Origin: Candidatus Parcubacteria bacterium
GTDB lineage: Bacteria > Patescibacteriota > Minisyncoccia > Phycocordibacterales > UBA918
Direction: 5' to 3'
Length of the DNA: 34,396 nucleotides
NCBI GenBank assembly: GCA_046049585.1
Contig: JBJORD010000028.1
Location: forward strand, 1 to 34,396
Made by a program: the position numbers and the translations under genes
Shown here: positions 12,058-33,187 of the stretch, piece by piece
How positions within the stretch are numbered: position 1 is the stretch's first letter
Layout of the letters: every line of letters starts with the position of its first letter
The notes under the pieces: model-generated
Told to the model about the DNA's origin: nothing
The model's input: only the letters and a program-made list of their open reading frames with translations
Database searches by the model: none

Positions 12058-12076
12058 TACTCATATAAAAAGCAAT

Positions 12077-12110
12077 AGAAAAACACTTTCATATATGAAA
12101 GTGTTTTTCT
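12077..12110. repeat. 34-bp perfect palindrome AGAAAAACACTTTCATA|TATGAAAGTGTTTTTCT (copy 1 of the ACTTTCATATATGAAAGT family), positioned like a bidirectional terminator
   Basis: Read directly from the sequence. It lies between the convergent ATL stop (12057) and the AlkC-like stop (12109-12111) and has A5/T5 flanks. Confidence 0.85.
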
Positions 12111-13236
12111 AACCCGAGCGAAGCGTAAAATCAGTTTTGCACACTACAACGCCGTTAATTTGTACGGCAACTGTATGCGTACCTGGATACAGTGTAAATG
12201 TAGTGGCATCGGCTTTGAGTCGGTGGTTTTTGATGAGCTCGAGTGACTCACCTCGCTTGAGCGAAACTATTTTCCACTTAAACACCTTAGGTGCAGTTGT
12301 ACCGTTTTTCTTTACAAAGTGGATGACGTAGTCGATGAGGAGATTTGTGTCATCAGTCGCAGTGATTGTGGTAGCAAATGACAACACGTCTCCAGCCTGT
12401 ATCTCTGAACTTGCGATAGTAAAACTATCTACCGTATATGTCGCACTGTTATAGCCAAGCAGGGTGAGTGTATCGCTATGTCCCTGTTTGATCAGAGTAC
12501 GTAATGCATGTTTCGTCATCCAAGCGAGCTCATGCGTATTTTGCTTCCCCAGCTTTTGCCACTGACGTAAAGTATCTATCACCACAGCCGGCTCTTTTTT
12601 CGCGATGTCATTGAGATGGTTTGCAATCGAGCGGGTCACATAACGAGTCGCATCTGCATGGAGGATATTGAGTAATGGGAGTGTATCAGCGCTCGAGAGT
12701 GGTACTCGCCCGCTCCAAGGCAATAAGGGCCTTGTCCCCTCACTCACTAGCCGCCTGACATGGTAGTTCTCATCACGAACCCACTGCTTCATAACGCGTA
12801 ATGTTTCTTTGGGAAACGCCCGCAGATAATACCGAATCGCGTCCTCCATAGAAAAACGCTGAGTTAGCTCACGGAGGGTTTCGAGTGATAGCGCGAGACG
12901 CTCCTTAGTACAACCATGCTTGGCCACATACTCACCAAAAGGCGCCAAAATAAATTCACCAAAATCATCATCAGTCTTTGTGGGATCTAGTGGTGGCGGC
13001 AAGGCGCGCACTATCACTGCTACCGCTTTTTTATAATCCGTTGGTAGATGTCGCGAAAGTACGTCTGCAATCCAGCGAATGCGGGCTTTGAGTTCGAGCG
13101 TGAGAAGTGTATGCATCACTTCCCGCTCAAATTCTTTAGCATCAAAGTTTTTGTCAGCTGCCGCGAGGAGTGACGCCAGGTACGCGACCCGCTCTTTATT
13201 AAACAAATGATCTTTGAGTGAAAAGCGTTCTGTCAC
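12109..13236 (-). CDS. alkC: DNA alkylation repair glycosylase, AlkC-like (HEAT-like repeats plus a C-terminal beta-rich Ig-like domain)
   Basis: Contains HVRRLVSEGTRPLLPWSGRV...YVTRSIANHLNDIAKKEPAVV, typical of the DNA-alkylation-repair HEAT-like repeat family. The ~100-aa beta-rich C-terminus is consistent with the long AlkC form. The start is GTG. Confidence 0.72.
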   Translation of the reverse strand: MTERFSLKDHLFNKERVAYLASLLAAADKNFDAKEFEREVMHTLLTLELKARIRWIADVLSRHLPTDYKKAVAVIVRALPPPLDPTKTDDDFGEFILAPFGEYVAKHGCTKERLALSLETLRELTQRFSMEDAIRYYLRAFPKETLRVMKQWVRDENYHVRRLVSEGTRPLLPWSGRVPLSSADTLPLLNILHADATRYVTRSIANHLNDIAKKEPAVVIDTLRQWQKLGKQNTHELAWMTKHALRTLIKQGHSDTLTLLGYNSATYTVDSFTIASSEIQAGDVLSFATTITATDDTNLLIDYVIHFVKKNGTTAPKVFKWKIVSLKRGESLELIKNHRLKADATTFTLYPGTHTVAVQINGVVVCKTDFTLRSG

Positions 13237-18677: not shown

Positions 18678-18787
18678 GACTCCTGGCTACTAGTACTTTC
18701 TGCAGGCCTCGCGGAAGTTTGCTTTTGAAAGCAAACTGAGCGGAGAACTTGATTCGTGCCTGAAGAAAGTACTAGTAGCCAGGAGTC
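18678..18787. repeat. 110-bp inverted-repeat element (30-bp arms, 1 mismatch) in the 148-bp gap between the two ABC genes
   Basis: GACTCCTGGCTACTAGTACTTTCTGCAGGC (18678-18707) pairs with GCCTGAAGAAAGTACTAGTAGCCAGGAGTC (18758-18787). An inner hairpin AGTTTGC...GCAAACT lies at 18716-18737. Confidence 0.85.
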
Positions 18788-19668: not shown

Positions 19669-20511
19669 GTGAAAAATCAAGAATACGATTGGCTACTGCG
19701 AGAAAAGTATCATGGTGAAAAAAGTGAGGCTTTTTTAGCTGATTGTGCCCGTATGGAGTCAGGCGTGCCATTAGCTTATATCATAGGGTCGATACCCTTT
19801 TTGGACTGCACTATTTATCTGGACTCCCATCCCCTCATTCCCCGCACCGAAACTGAGTGGTGGGTCGAGCAAGCTATTTCAGTCGTTCGTAATACAATAC
19901 AATCGACTCACTCGGTAGCAGTTACGAAGTCTCCGCAGCGAAAATACTCTGAGCGAGGACGGGCTTCGGAACTGCTACCGAGTGAGTTACATTACCAGGT
20001 CCTTGATCTCTGTGCAGGTAGTGGTGCGATAGGCGTGGCAGTAGCCAAAGCAATACCTGAGGCAGTAGTGACCTTTGCCGAAATTGACCCCAACCACCTG
20101 CCGACTATCCAAAAGAATCTTACAGAAAATACTTTCATATATGAAAGTATTAAATATCCAGTTATTGAGAGTGATGTATTCTCGAATGTAACAGGGACGT
20201 TTGATTTTATTCTCACAAACCCGCCATACATTGATGCCAAGGCTAATACTGTTGACGCATCTGTCATAGCACACGAGCCACACCTCGCTCTCTTTGGTGG
20301 TATTGGTGGCATGGAGATCATTGCTCGTATTATTACTGACGCCCGAGCGTACCTTACGCCGCAGATCGGACAACTCTGGATTGAGCATGAACCATTCCAA
20401 GCGGACGCCATCATGGAGATAGCACAATTACACGGATTTGAGTCGGTGACCTATACCGATCAATACGGCACAGTGCGCTATAGCATCCTTACGTTACCTG
20501 TGGCAAAATAA
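19669..20511 (+). CDS. prmC: Release-factor glutamine N5-methyltransferase (HemK/PrmC) carrying two in-frame palindromic segments
   Basis: Contains LIPRTETEWWVE, the SAM motif VLDLCAGSGAIG, the catalytic NPPY (ILTNPPYI) and HEPHLALFGG. The start is GTG. Confidence 0.85.
   Translation: MKNQEYDWLLREKYHGEKSEAFLADCARMESGVPLAYIIGSIPFLDCTIYLDSHPLIPRTETEWWVEQAISVVRNTIQSTHSVAVTKSPQRKYSERGRASELLPSELHYQVLDLCAGSGAIGVAVAKAIPEAVVTFAEIDPNHLPTIQKNLTENTFIYESIKYPVIESDVFSNVTGTFDFILTNPPYIDAKANTVDASVIAHEPHLALFGGIGGMEIIARIITDARAYLTPQIGQLWIEHEPFQADAIMEIAQLHGFESVTYTDQYGTVRYSILTLPVAK
19906..19987. repeat. 82-bp hairpin element inside the prmC reading frame (18-bp perfect arms plus a 5-bp inner stem)
   Basis: ACTCACTCGGTAGCAGTT (19906-19923) pairs with AACTGCTACCGAGTGAGT (19970-19987). 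CGAAG (19925-19929) pairs with CTTCG (19964-19968). Confidence 0.85.
20128..20151. repeat. 24-bp perfect palindrome AATACTTTCATA|TATGAAAGTATT (copy 2), in-frame in prmC
   Basis: Read directly from the sequence. It equals exactly 8 codons (N T F I Y E S I). Confidence 0.9.
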
Positions 20512-20516
20512 CTGGT

Positions 20517-20720
20517 ATGACATCTTTTGATTTAGCCCCTTTCCTGCAGATTGGTTTTTACTTGTTTGCCATTTTGTACGCTATTTTTAGCGCTGTGTTG
20601 TTTTATCACTGGCAGAACTTTTCGATGTCGCGCCTGGTCACCACACAAACATACATAGCCTACGGAGTTACGAGTGTACCGTTGTTATTAATCATGGGAG
20701 TGATTGCTTTTGCTGGATAA
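20517..20720 (+). CDS. Small two-TM membrane protein (67 aa)
   Basis: It has two hydrophobic helices. It starts 5 nt after prmC and abuts the bPH-domain gene (a YdbS/YdbT-like pairing). Confidence 0.5.
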   Translation: MTSFDLAPFLQIGFYLFAILYAIFSAVLFYHWQNFSMSRLVTTQTYIAYGVTSVPLLLIMGVIAFAG

Positions 20721-20724
20721 ATAT

Positions 20725-21288
20725 ATGCTACACGACGAAATCGAACTCGAAGTAGGTGAAACAGTGATGAAAACTGTCCGCAAACATTGGTTTGTTATTA
20801 CTATTGAAATGGTAGCGATTGTGATAATGGGGCTGGTACCCGTGATTGGTTGTATTATTCTCTTAAACCTACCCTACAACCAAGCCACAACGGTTTTGTT
20901 TGAAGAGAATTTGCCCGTCTTATTGTTTGGTCTAGCTGGATGGCTCCTTATGTCGGTCATGGCCACTGTTGTAGCCTGGACACACTACTACCTTGATCTC
21001 TGGATTATCACCGACCGTCGTATCATTGTGATCGAACAAGTGAGTTTCTTCAATCGCAAAGTGAGCAACTTTCGACTCGAACGTATGCAGGATATCAAAG
21101 TCACCATCAAAGGTATCATTCCGACGCTACTTAATTACGGTACTGTGCGTGCTCAGACAGCTAGTGCCGCTGAAAGTAACTTCACTTCACCAGGTCTCCC
21201 TGATCCACGCGGGTTACAGTCACTTATTCAGACAGCTATGGACGCCCGCCTCAAGGCACTTGGTGACGCTCCAATAATGGCAGACTAA
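20725..21288 (+). CDS. Membrane protein with a bacterial PH (bPH_2/YdbT-like) domain
   Basis: It has two TM helices followed by YLDLWIITDRRIIVIEQVSFFNRKVSNFRLERMQDIKV, typical of the bPH fold. The TTG at 20704 is an alternative start. Confidence 0.68.
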   Translation: MLHDEIELEVGETVMKTVRKHWFVITIEMVAIVIMGLVPVIGCIILLNLPYNQATTVLFEENLPVLLFGLAGWLLMSVMATVVAWTHYYLDLWIITDRRIIVIEQVSFFNRKVSNFRLERMQDIKVTIKGIIPTLLNYGTVRAQTASAAESNFTSPGLPDPRGLQSLIQTAMDARLKALGDAPIMAD

Positions 21289-21397
21289 AAAGAAAACAGA
21301 TCCCAAAAAAAACCTGTGATATTTTGTTGCAAGACTTGGCCGAGCAGCCCGGAGCACAACAAAATATGGTGGGTATTTTTGATTTTGGGTAATGTCA

Positions 21398-21426
21398 TTG
21401 CAAATACAACAATTTTCCCCTAGAAT
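21398..21426 (+). promoter_or_regulatory. hisS promoter TTGCAA-N17-TAGAAT
   Basis: TTGCAA at 21398-21403, a 17-nt spacer, and TAGAAT at 21421-21426. The ATG lies 7 nt downstream with no SD, which predicts a leaderless transcript. Confidence 0.6.
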
Positions 21427-21433
21427 CAAGGAT

Positions 21434-22696
21434 ATGGCAGACAAATTCTTGACCACCGACTCATACAAAGGAGTGCGGGATTTTTATCCAGAAGACATGG
21501 CGATACAGCGCTACATCTTTGATGTATGGAGCCATACAGCTGAAAGTTTTGGGTATGAACGGTATGATGCGTCGGTACTCGAACCGTCAGAGCTATACAA
21601 GAGTAAAGGGGCGGAAAACGAGGAGATGGTTAATGAGCAGACCTACACCTTTGTTGATCGTGGCGAGCGCGAAGTAACCCTTCGTCCCGAAATGACTCCA
21701 ACCGTTGCCCGCATGGTGGCTGGTCGACGACGTGAACTGTCTTTCCCGATTCGTTGGTACAGTATCCCAAACCTTTTCCGTTACGAACGTCCCCAGCGTG
21801 GCCGCTTGCGCGAACACTGGCAACTCAACTGCGACATGTTTGGCTCTGCTGACTACACCGCTGATGTTGAAGTAATCGCTCTAGCCAGTCAACTAATCCG
21901 TAACTTCGGGGCCGATGATTCCCTCTTTGAAATCCGTATCAATGATCGCGCCGAAATGCGAGGCAAATACAATACTCTAGGTGTCAGCGATATTAGAACC
22001 CAAGACAGCATCACCCGCCTCAACGACCGCTTCCACAAAATTTCTGCCGCCGAGTACAAAGCTGCCCTGACTGATATTGTTACGGACCAAGCTATCGTAG
22101 ACAATGTCTACACCCTTGTTTCTGGTGGCGATACTACTGACACCAACCAAGTGGTCGAAGGTTTGCGCGCGCTTGGTATCACAAATGTAAAAATCGATCG
22201 CTCGATTGCTCGCGGCTTTAATTACTACACAGGCACCATTTTTGAGATCTTTGATGTCTCTAGCGAAAACAACCGTTCAATGTTGGGTGGCGGACGCTAC
22301 GACAACCTCACGAGCATGTTTAGTCCTGAACCTATTTCTGGTATCGGATTTGGTATGGGTGATGTTACTATGCGCGACTTCCTCGAAACTCACGATCTAG
22401 TGACTGCAAGCATTACTGCCCCTACCGTTATGGTTGTTCCGATGACTACAACAGAGAATTTGGTAGCTCAACAAATCGCTGCGACTATTCGTTCCAAAGA
22501 GATATCTGTAGCAACGGACATTGGTACCCGAAAGATTGGCAAAAAAATCAGTGACGCAGCCGATCGATTAGTTGAGTACATTCTTGTTGTTGGTGAAGAC
22601 GAAGTAAAAAGCGGTACTTATACGCTCAAGAACCTGCTCGAAGAAAGTACAACGAGAGGCACTCTAGACGAATTTATCATTCAATTAACTGAATAG
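21434..22696 (+). CDS. hisS: Histidine--tRNA ligase
   Basis: Contains GVRDFYPEDM, LRPEMTPTVARM, YSIPNLFRYERPQRGRLREHWQ and GGGRYDNL (class II motifs 1-3 plus the HisRS signatures). Confidence 0.92.
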   Translation: MADKFLTTDSYKGVRDFYPEDMAIQRYIFDVWSHTAESFGYERYDASVLEPSELYKSKGAENEEMVNEQTYTFVDRGEREVTLRPEMTPTVARMVAGRRRELSFPIRWYSIPNLFRYERPQRGRLREHWQLNCDMFGSADYTADVEVIALASQLIRNFGADDSLFEIRINDRAEMRGKYNTLGVSDIRTQDSITRLNDRFHKISAAEYKAALTDIVTDQAIVDNVYTLVSGGDTTDTNQVVEGLRALGITNVKIDRSIARGFNYYTGTIFEIFDVSSENNRSMLGGGRYDNLTSMFSPEPISGIGFGMGDVTMRDFLETHDLVTASITAPTVMVVPMTTTENLVAQQIAATIRSKEISVATDIGTRKIGKKISDAADRLVEYILVVGEDEVKSGTYTLKNLLEESTTRGTLDEFIIQLTE

Positions 22697-32706: not shown

Positions 32707-32732
32707 AAATACTTTCATATATGATAGTATTT
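32707..32732. promoter_or_regulatory. 26-bp palindrome AAATACTTTCATA|TATGATAGTATTT (copy 3, 1 mismatch); candidate operator overlapping the promoter of the TrpR-like gene
   Basis: It ends 4 nt before the ATG at 32737 and contains the -10-like TAGTAT (32725-32730). Confidence 0.6.
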
Positions 32733-33161: not shown

Positions 33162-33187
33162 AAATACTTTCATATATAAAAGTATTT
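33162..33187. repeat. 26-bp palindrome AAATACTTTCATA|TATAAAAGTATTT (copy 4, 1 mismatch)
   Basis: It starts 5 nt after the stop of the TrpR-like gene and lies immediately before an independent GC-containing terminator. Confidence 0.85.

Follow-up and report, generated by a model that had tools for sequence, protein, structure and literature searches.

A perfect 24-bp palindrome within prmC of a Candidatus Parcubacteria bacterium: a putative operator copy written over codons

Why should a housekeeping gene carry a perfect palindrome within its coding sequence? The question is raised by prmC of a Candidatus Parcubacteria bacterium (assembly GCA_046049585.1), which contains the 24-bp element AATACTTTCATATATGAAAGTATT, hereafter the prmC dyad. 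The stretch analyzed, called the window here, comprises the 34,396 nucleotides of contig JBJORD010000028.1, and the genome to which it belongs (G000) is 716 kb in size, distributed over 76 contigs, with a GC content of 45%; names attached to its homologues point to Paceibacteria/Parcubacteria. To our knowledge, gene regulation in the Candidate Phyla Radiation (CPR)/Patescibacteria is almost unknown. The most likely answer, to which we give about an even chance, is that the prmC dyad of G000 is bound by a TrpR-like dimer encoded in the same window. The evidence consists of its identity with the dyads flanking the gene of that protein, its operator geometry, covariation between protein and DNA, conservation at the nucleotide level, and replacement of codons without a change in length.

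The two 12-nt arms of the prmC dyad are 100% complementary with no loop between them, and together they fill eight complete codons (NTFIYESI, residues 154-161 of the 280-aa open reading frame (ORF)) between the VLDLCAGSG and NPPY motifs, exactly as the original prediction had described. It is the longest loop-less perfect palindrome within any ORF of G000. The same prediction held that the core is shared with sites flanking a regulator gene, and this is correct: the two dyads bracketing the gene for a TrpR/YerC-like helix-turn-helix (HTH) protein each differ from the prmC copy at a single base (Table 1). Another copy in the window, at position 12082, has 22 of the 24 bases in common with it (two mismatches), and a single further copy was found elsewhere in the genome (C45:11523), giving five copies genome-wide, four of them within 21 kb. 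As RNA, the prmC dyad would form a modest hairpin (-8.9 kcal/mol, z -5.1). An intrinsic terminator at this position was rejected, as the terminator scan made no call there and the AT-rich stem of -8.9 kcal/mol is not followed by a T-run; a simple promoter scan likewise gave nothing at the dyad.

Table 1. Positions of the features of the window that are discussed in the text.
Feature	Position	Strand	Evidence and remarks
prmC, HemK-family release-factor glutamine methyltransferase	19669..20511	+	Pfam MTS 1.9e-16; NCBIfam hemK_fam 150 bits, cutoff 115
prmC dyad	20128..20151		TTTC variant of family core CTWTCATATATGAWAG; in-frame NTFIYESI
TrpR/YerC-like HTH protein, 139 aa	32737..33156	+	Pfam Trp_repressor 5.5e-10; recognition-helix motif GHNT
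Upstream dyad	32708..32731		23/24 vs. prmC copy; right arm TGATAGTAT
Downstream dyad	33163..33186		23/24 vs. prmC copy; 6 nt past stop codon
36-bp perfect palindrome, core CACTTTCATATATGAAAGTG	12076..12111		Between convergent ATL-like and AlkC-like genes; RNA hairpin -19.1 kcal/mol
Small transmembrane (TM) protein, bPH_2 protein, hisS (21392-22696)	20517..22696	+	3' of prmC; Pfam; probable transcription unit
82-bp in-frame hairpin in prmC linker	19906..19987		Separate palindrome; RNA -51 kcal/mol; encodes residues 86-109, low predicted local distance difference test (pLDDT) score

The 139-aa protein scores 39.6 bits against Pfam Trp_repressor (gathering score 27), and its closest solved structures are the TrpR-like 3g1c (E 0.007) and 3frw. 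The right arm of the upstream dyad looks like an extended -10 at a distance of 6 nt from the ATG, and this overlap suggests that the TrpR-like gene is autorepressed through the dyad. A separate canonical terminator hairpin is present 3' of the downstream dyad. For the relatives, genes were called by ORF scans made for this analysis, and many of these genomes are fragmented metagenome-assembled genomes (MAGs). Orthologous regulator genes in congeners are likewise bracketed, by copies of CACTATCATATATGATAGTG, and a wider search of the genus revealed between one and four paralogous HTH genes per genome, each flanked on both sides by its own perfect palindrome, with the two dyads ~450 bp apart and at least 15 dyad types in all. 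We refer to such a gene with its two dyads as a cassette. The type-1 cassette is syntenic in four genomes (dnaG, cassette, rpoC), and the 139-aa regulator is the only cassette-family member in G000, being the only hit of a cassette hidden Markov model. The family core, allowing at most one mismatch, occurs in 4-8 copies per genome in eight congeners and in none of the remaining congeners; in other families of the order it is nearly absent (single one-mismatch hits in two genomes), and a reversed-pattern control gave essentially no hits (one genome). Comparison of two cassette sites in other genomes with G000 (between rplU and recR in G021, and between metG and tatD in G020), made with cassette mobility in mind, revealed an unrelated small ORF at these places in G000. 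The type-2 cassette protein (L084 1493-1894, G021) weakly resembles the HTH at the N-terminus of IS630 transposases (NCBIfam E 4.5e-4, far under the cutoff) as well as HTH_23, HTH_28 and HTH_7, and lacks a catalytic region. Several MAG contigs start or end at dyads (G015:C27, G008:C59, G018:C12 and C22, and G001:C49). Since the palindromes break assemblies, cassette genes may be missing from some bins.

The operator of HisR (Bacillus subtilis YerC), a member of the TrpR family, is a 20-bp palindrome with consensus cacTTTAnnnnnnTAAAgtg (PMC9413887). This consensus is nearly matched by the 12082 copy, and both this copy and the prmC dyad (ACTTTCATATATGAAAGT) differ from it only at two mirrored positions adjacent to the spacer. 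The prmC dyad also has the geometry of the TrpR/HisR operators, which are palindromes of the 18-20-bp class read by dimers; the promoter overlap typical of these operators is predicted for the 32708 copy only, and not for the prmC copy. In both systems, the regulator commonly has a site at its own promoter, which points to autoregulation. Unlike the HisR sites, which lie upstream of histidine biosynthesis and transport genes, the dyads described here are mostly located inside ORFs or at 3' ends, and the regulator gene is bracketed on both sides; the histidine link goes no further than the presence of hisS downstream in the same gene cluster. Exact copies of the 18-mer in Firmicutes were considered as proof of a HisR operator and dismissed: their neighbours (GH43, DAHP synthase, IclR/MFS and HAD genes) include no his genes, and in Fredinandcohnia the 18-mer is merely conserved coding sequence.

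The strongest evidence available for reading of the dyad by the TrpR-like protein is that dyad and recognition helix covary. In all cassettes whose dyads are of the TATC type, the 24-mer variant AATACTATCATATATGATAGTATT, the recognition helix starts with GPNT, whereas His or Ser stands in the place of Pro in 10 out of 10 further cassettes with exact TTTC dyads from public genomes and metagenomes. The motifs in TTTC-flanked cassettes are GHNT, SHPT, SS[AT]T or GSAT. In total, the pairing of GPNT with TATC and of His/Ser with TTTC extends over 15 cassettes, and all 11 of the TTTC type have His or Ser. G000 is alone in its clade in having GHNT, and L141, which has GHNT as well, is placed with it inside the Pro-type clade. 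In G000, the mirrored change from TATC to TTTC has affected the copies in prmC and at 12082 together with 1.5 of the two flanking ones, and TATC is retained on C45. By this pattern, the prmC copy is shown to track the predicted specificity of the regulator, through selection or through conversion from other copies. The proposal that the element is an intragenic operator is thus well supported as regards its predicted operator identity, by geometry, by gene bracketing, and by a covariation that includes the prmC copy.

The position of the dyad in the protein bears on how it got there. The prmC ORF scores slightly under the cutoff of the NCBIfam PrmC equivalog. G000 PrmC has, between helix aB and strand b3, a connector that is ~2 residues longer than usual in an alignment with 20 congeners and 4 residues longer than that of Escherichia coli HemK (2b3t). 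In an AlphaFold2 model (pLDDT 86 overall and 89-93 across residues 151-170), the dyad-encoded residues form the end of helix aB (141-154) and a confident short helix (157-162), both preceding strand b3 (165-167), and make up a surface element distant from NPPY. The alternative offered by the original prediction, a small mobile palindrome inserted in a surface loop, is therefore right about a tolerant surface position, on which the mapping on PDB structures and the model agree, and not supported as regards a discrete insertion. The residues form a short helix, NTFIYESI is not a discrete insertion relative to relatives, and a clean 8-codon insertion is rejected on the orthologue alignments and on gap-free replacements in other host genes, without target-site duplications. 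The same residues recur in other PrmC proteins, and their DNA is palindromic in every relative for which it was read, so that the refuting case named by the original prediction, with these residues on non-palindromic DNA, did not arise.

The type-1 dyad is present in the prmC connector of G000, G001, G018, L195 and L258. Between G000 and the metagenomic L258, whose PrmC proteins are 66% identical, the dyad with 20 nt on either side is 94% identical at the DNA level, versus 71% over the whole gene. Other relatives have other palindromes there. The connectors of G016, G007 and G004 contain CCAATCG(A/G)TTGG, which in G020 and G021 flanks a paralogue as its dyad; that of G024 contains ACCTGTTAACAGG, which serves as a cassette dyad in G018; and that of G001 has, beside the type-1 dyad, AACCTTTCTGTTGACAGAAAGGTT, which is close to a G007 cassette dyad. 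On the PrmC tree the dyad types are interleaved (clade (G024, (G000, G007), (G018, G001)), support 100/99), indicating repeated gain or replacement. About half of 120 PrmC homologues have some palindrome in the connector: T[FI]IY[ED]S is present in 18 of them, with ~12 variants in addition, the EYSNRLxY type in ~12, and NLSVNRKV-like peptides, matching AACCTTTCTGTTAACAGAAAGGTT, in ~18. A distant PrmC (L158, 34% identical) contains AAAACACTTTCATATATGAAAGTGTTTT at another position, again gap-free.

Dyads of this family also occur in frame in other genes. In relatives, the hosts are a TrmB-like regulator (three species), MurC and reverse transcriptases (RTs), and in public collections the exact TTTC 18-mer was found in genes for AlaRS (4 loci), ArgRS, enolase, PolA, ComEC, MurC (3), PrmC (2 more) and RTs (16). 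Its reading frame is in every case one of the two without a stop, TFIYES or LSYMKV; TGA occurs in the third. In comparison with the dyad-free G000 orthologues, the six dyad-encoded residues replace native residues without gaps in the TrmB-like protein (RLVYAN), AlaRS (PNLAEK), ArgRS (HDAEVD), PolA (WSVFEK), ComEC (ALVSPV) and one further ORF, with MurC as the exception (+5 and +2). These replacements argue that the dyads are length-neutral overprints and not transposon-like insertions. Neither direct repeats nor target-site duplications were found around the dyad copies, and the conserved unit is 18-28 bp long. The DNA of the three TrmB-like genes is 67% identical overall, and the dyad block is 100% identical over 18-23 nt, including synonymous positions. 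Intergenic copies are embedded centrally in longer perfect palindromes, whose arms are often A/T tracts, with AAAACACTTTCATATATGAAAGTGTTTT as the extended consensus. The prmC dyad belongs to a wider, undescribed pattern in which palindromes overwrite housekeeping codons and leave protein length unchanged. A search of the literature on palindromes or operators in Patescibacteria found no description of such dyads; the chance that the overprinting is a categorically new phenomenon is substantial, though well below even.

Our preferred explanation, which we hold with roughly even confidence, is that the 24-bp prmC dyad is a genuine operator copy for the TrpR/YerC-like homodimer, overwritten on connector codons. 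On this view, the dyad took the place of codons in a tolerant surface connector of PrmC (end of helix aB to strand b3) and was not inserted as a unit. The order of the genes for an ABC permease and an ABC ATPase, followed by the divergent prmC, small TM, bPH and hisS genes, is kept genus-wide, and hisS is identified by a Pfam match. The dyad lies ~460 nt into the prmC ORF, within the probable prmC-hisS transcription unit, and this conserved order with a confirmed hisS implies that a bound dimer would stand in the path of RNA polymerase. An occupied site may act as a roadblock or as an auxiliary operator, or may simply be an extra binding site. Operators inside coding sequence are known, the purB operator and lacO2 being examples. 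Elongation can be blocked by repressors bound past the transcription start, among them PurR, GalR, CcpA and CodY (PMC10310618), and by analogy the prmC dyad is possibly a roadblock on the prmC-hisS unit. As in those cases (PurR at purB, for example), a palindromic site lies in a housekeeping gene past the transcription start. Unlike them, where a conserved regulon and a known effector exist, the prmC site is predicted, perfectly symmetric and 24 bp long. The origin and perfect symmetry of the site may be due to templated, palindrome-directed conversion by quasi-palindrome template switching, which the gap-free replacement of many bases suggests and which makes stepwise point mutation less likely. 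Such template switching is known to turn imperfect inverted repeats into perfect ones (PMC7202029). Mirrored changes and perfect arms of extended length would both follow from it; it accounts for the upkeep of symmetry, but not for identity to copies elsewhere in the genome.

Several observations weigh against binding by the regulator as the reason for the prmC dyad. The protein is, unlike HisR, under the NCBIfam cutoffs for YerC/YecD (21.3 vs. 42.2) and TrpR (20.8 vs. 67.25). The pairing of the regulator with a prmC site is not conserved among relatives, in contrast to the roadblock operators: G007, G016 and G024 have the type-1 cassette and no type-1 dyad in or near prmC, and the prmC dyad occurs in G018 (99% complete) and in G001 without a detectable type-1 regulator, although a regulator gene could sit in an assembly gap in these two genomes because contigs break at dyads. 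In assembly CAZTWW, the cassette retains TTTC dyads, but the prmC dyad is now AATACTACTATATATAGTAGTATT (the P0003 variant), in which six core bases have changed and the palindrome is still perfect. Finally, the satellite copies are mostly located off promoters, namely at terminator tips, inside ORFs or between convergent genes, with most of them within ORFs or between convergent genes. The non-conserved link between regulator and prmC, together with these off-promoter satellites, keeps explanations based on selfish spread and on palindromy as such, selected or self-maintained, in contention.

The best placed of these, possible though on balance unlikely, is that the dyads are satellites of the HTH cassettes that are copied by template into tolerant sites, the prmC copy being a passenger or relic. 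Placement would then follow tolerance (protein surface segments and terminator tips) and not promoters. Identical 18-28-mers in unrelated housekeeping ORFs of distant CPR lineages, only in the frames TFIYES and LSYMKV, fit this idea, and the gap-free replacements in AlaRS, ArgRS, PolA and ComEC would each take more than 10 point changes stepwise. Orphan prmC dyads are found in genomes without the cognate cassette (G016, G007 and G024), and cassettes occur at non-syntenic sites, in 1-4 copies per genome. The model for such an element is the REPtron, in which a RAYT (Y1/HUH) transposase gene is flanked by its own repetitive extragenic palindromic (REP) sequences, with copies in the hundreds. As in REPtrons, each paralogue is bracketed by its own palindrome and further copies are scattered in the genome. 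However, the protein gave only HTH and Trp_repressor hits, so that it resembles a TrpR-type HTH protein without a catalytic domain and not a Y1/HUH transposase. The copy number is very low (4-8 per genome), about half of this handful of copies is intragenic, target-site duplications are absent, and the insert size is not fixed. The synteny of the type-1 cassette in four genomes also speaks against mobility, no copying mechanism is known, and the concerted change in G000 that matches the regulator is equally expected from selection for binding. Rickettsia palindromic elements (RPEs) are ~150-bp in-frame insertions resembling miniature transposable elements with inverted repeats (MITEs) that add a peptide module (PMC10969869). 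Both these and the dyads are repeated palindromic DNA translated in frame in unrelated housekeeping genes at positions that the fold tolerates. The dyads lack the hallmarks of RPEs and MITEs, which are a discrete insertion, an element of ~50-150 bp or more with terminal inverted repeats, and a target-site duplication; they are 18-28 bp long, mostly replace codons at constant length and are tied to the operator of a DNA-binding protein. With low confidence, we propose as a broader form of this idea a so far undescribed process in Paceibacteria, by which cassette palindromes would be copied in frame and at constant length onto the codons of such essential genes as PrmC, MurC, aminoacyl-tRNA synthetases, PolA, ComEC and RTs, where they would persist by self-symmetrizing as part of a selfish or mutagenic system.

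It is improbable, in our view, that the element is maintained for its structure, as an mRNA hairpin or a DNA cruciform, with the operator match in G000 being secondary. In support of this, the connector carries perfect palindromes that differ between lineages by mirrored changes, as in G016 versus G007 and in the near-identical prmC genes P0002 and P0003, where three mirrored core pairs differ (TTCATATATGAA vs. ACTATATATAGT) within identical flanks and both versions are perfect 24-mers. Among 116 homologues, 17 connector peptide palindromes were counted (10-14 residues, codable in frame by their own reverse complement), against ~2.4 expected over whole shuffled proteins. In-frame hairpins recur at three further positions in prmC orthologues, and the RNA hairpin of the G000 dyad has a clearly negative z. 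On the other hand, this explanation accounts neither for the match of the prmC palindromes to cassette dyad types (T1, T2 and T3) nor for the same mirrored change at three separate G000 loci. The hairpin is weak, many congeners have no palindrome at this place, and template switching can keep palindromes perfect without selection (PMC7202029).

We consider it very improbable that the dyads are position-independent chromosomal sites, similar to parS or to the sites of Noc and MatP, with which a protein organizes or marks the chromosome and for which locations in ORFs would be allowed. Each genome has few perfect palindromes, many of them inside ORFs, with some clustering near the gene of the protein in G000 and a similar picture in G016; the protein is TrpR-like, however, and not ParB-, Noc- or MatP-like, and a single genome can contain several paralogues whose dyads differ. 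A palindrome arising by chance from the amino-acid sequence, for which only the AT-rich local composition speaks, can be discarded, since the 24-mer was not matched in any of 100 dinucleotide-preserving shuffles, ~0.04 perfect 24-bp palindromes are expected per 716 kb by our own arithmetic, a palindrome perfect at 24 out of 24 positions shares 23 bases with two other sites, and the same DNA recurs in orthologues; the original prediction had judged chance unlikely as well.

A bound prmC dyad would provide a concrete regulator-site pair with a testable specificity, in which His/Ser or Pro at one position of the helix corresponds to TTTC or TATC. The sequences also indicate that housekeeping proteins can be dictated locally by a nucleic-acid palindrome, through the reverse-complement codon pairs T/S, F/E, I/D, I/Y, N/V, L/K and S/R, and that one and the same palindrome of 18-28 bp has replaced sequence in unrelated essential genes without indels. 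If templated copying is true, it would be a new route by which binding sites or selfish DNA spread through coding sequence; if it is cassette palindromes that are copied, a new class of system would reshape protein sequence by reverse-complement codon rules. In practical terms, the dyads break assemblies and can mislead the alignment of loop regions.

Of the other dyad hosts, CPR RTs (Pfam RVT_1) are the most frequent, with the dyad at two fixed positions (L061, L072, L081, L122, L126, L139, L142, L165, L173, L189, L208 and others). The first, drTFIYESYscr, lies towards the N-terminus of the RT domain, where it overlays what we take to be the native RT motif FIxDSY; the second, llkTLSYMKVfl, directly follows YxDD. 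An RT as a required partner was rejected, G000 being without an RT homologue. Enrichment of aminoacyl-tRNA synthetases among the hosts (AlaRS, ArgRS, PheT, and hisS as neighbour) was also set aside, the independent cases being too few. Type-2 dyads occur in frame as well, as CTCAATAGTCCAATCGATTGGACTATTGAG in the ORF for PheT (Phe-tRNA synthetase beta) and as a copy in that for an SLT-domain transglycosylase, at loci L090 (G022:C3) and L088 (G023:C22). In a JACCDG/CAZTWW relative, a 30-bp perfect dyad, AAAAATACTTCTATATATAGAAGTATTTTT, lies immediately 3' of hisS (L256 12869-12898); it shares the CTATATATAG centre with the prmC dyad of that genome, so that the two bracket the TM-bPH-hisS genes. 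No dyad was found after hisS in G000.

G000 is rich in very long perfect palindromes, including one of 72 bp (C47:6533-6604) and dozens with 17-27-nt arms; most of these consist of an A-tract, a stem and a T-tract between genes and resemble bidirectional terminators. Between the genes for the ABC ATPase and the permease, and just upstream of the prmC region, lies a 110-bp inverted repeat with 24-nt perfect arm cores and a 62-nt loop (18678-18787 of the window). Within prmC, the 82-bp hairpin was considered as a member of the dyad family and rejected, as blastn showed no relation to the dyad; at the same place, unrelated hairpins are present in relatives (L002, L004 (two), L005, L013 and L022). 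Near the 5' end of prmC, an in-frame hairpin of the form CGGCGAAAAAAGC-nnn-GCTTTTTTCGCCG is found at ~7% of the ORF in L002, L006, L007, L009, L010, L012, L013, L016, L018 and L019, and in a weaker form in G000 (~19708-19745 of the window). Its variants are GGCGTGGAAAGC/GCTTTCCACGCC, GCGCGGAAAGC/GCTTTCCGCGC and GCCAGGAAAGC/GCTTTCCTGGC, and its product, G-E/V/A/Q-K/E-S-x-A-F-F/H/R/L-A, contains residues that covary as reverse-complement codon pairs. The conserved strand of PrmC motif II (MVRIDFSEIDAHH) is encoded by 41-bp near-perfect palindromes with arms of 19-20 nt (L014 1890-1930, L023 1374-1414 and L009 1572-1594), and the differences between those of L014 and L023 are compensatory.

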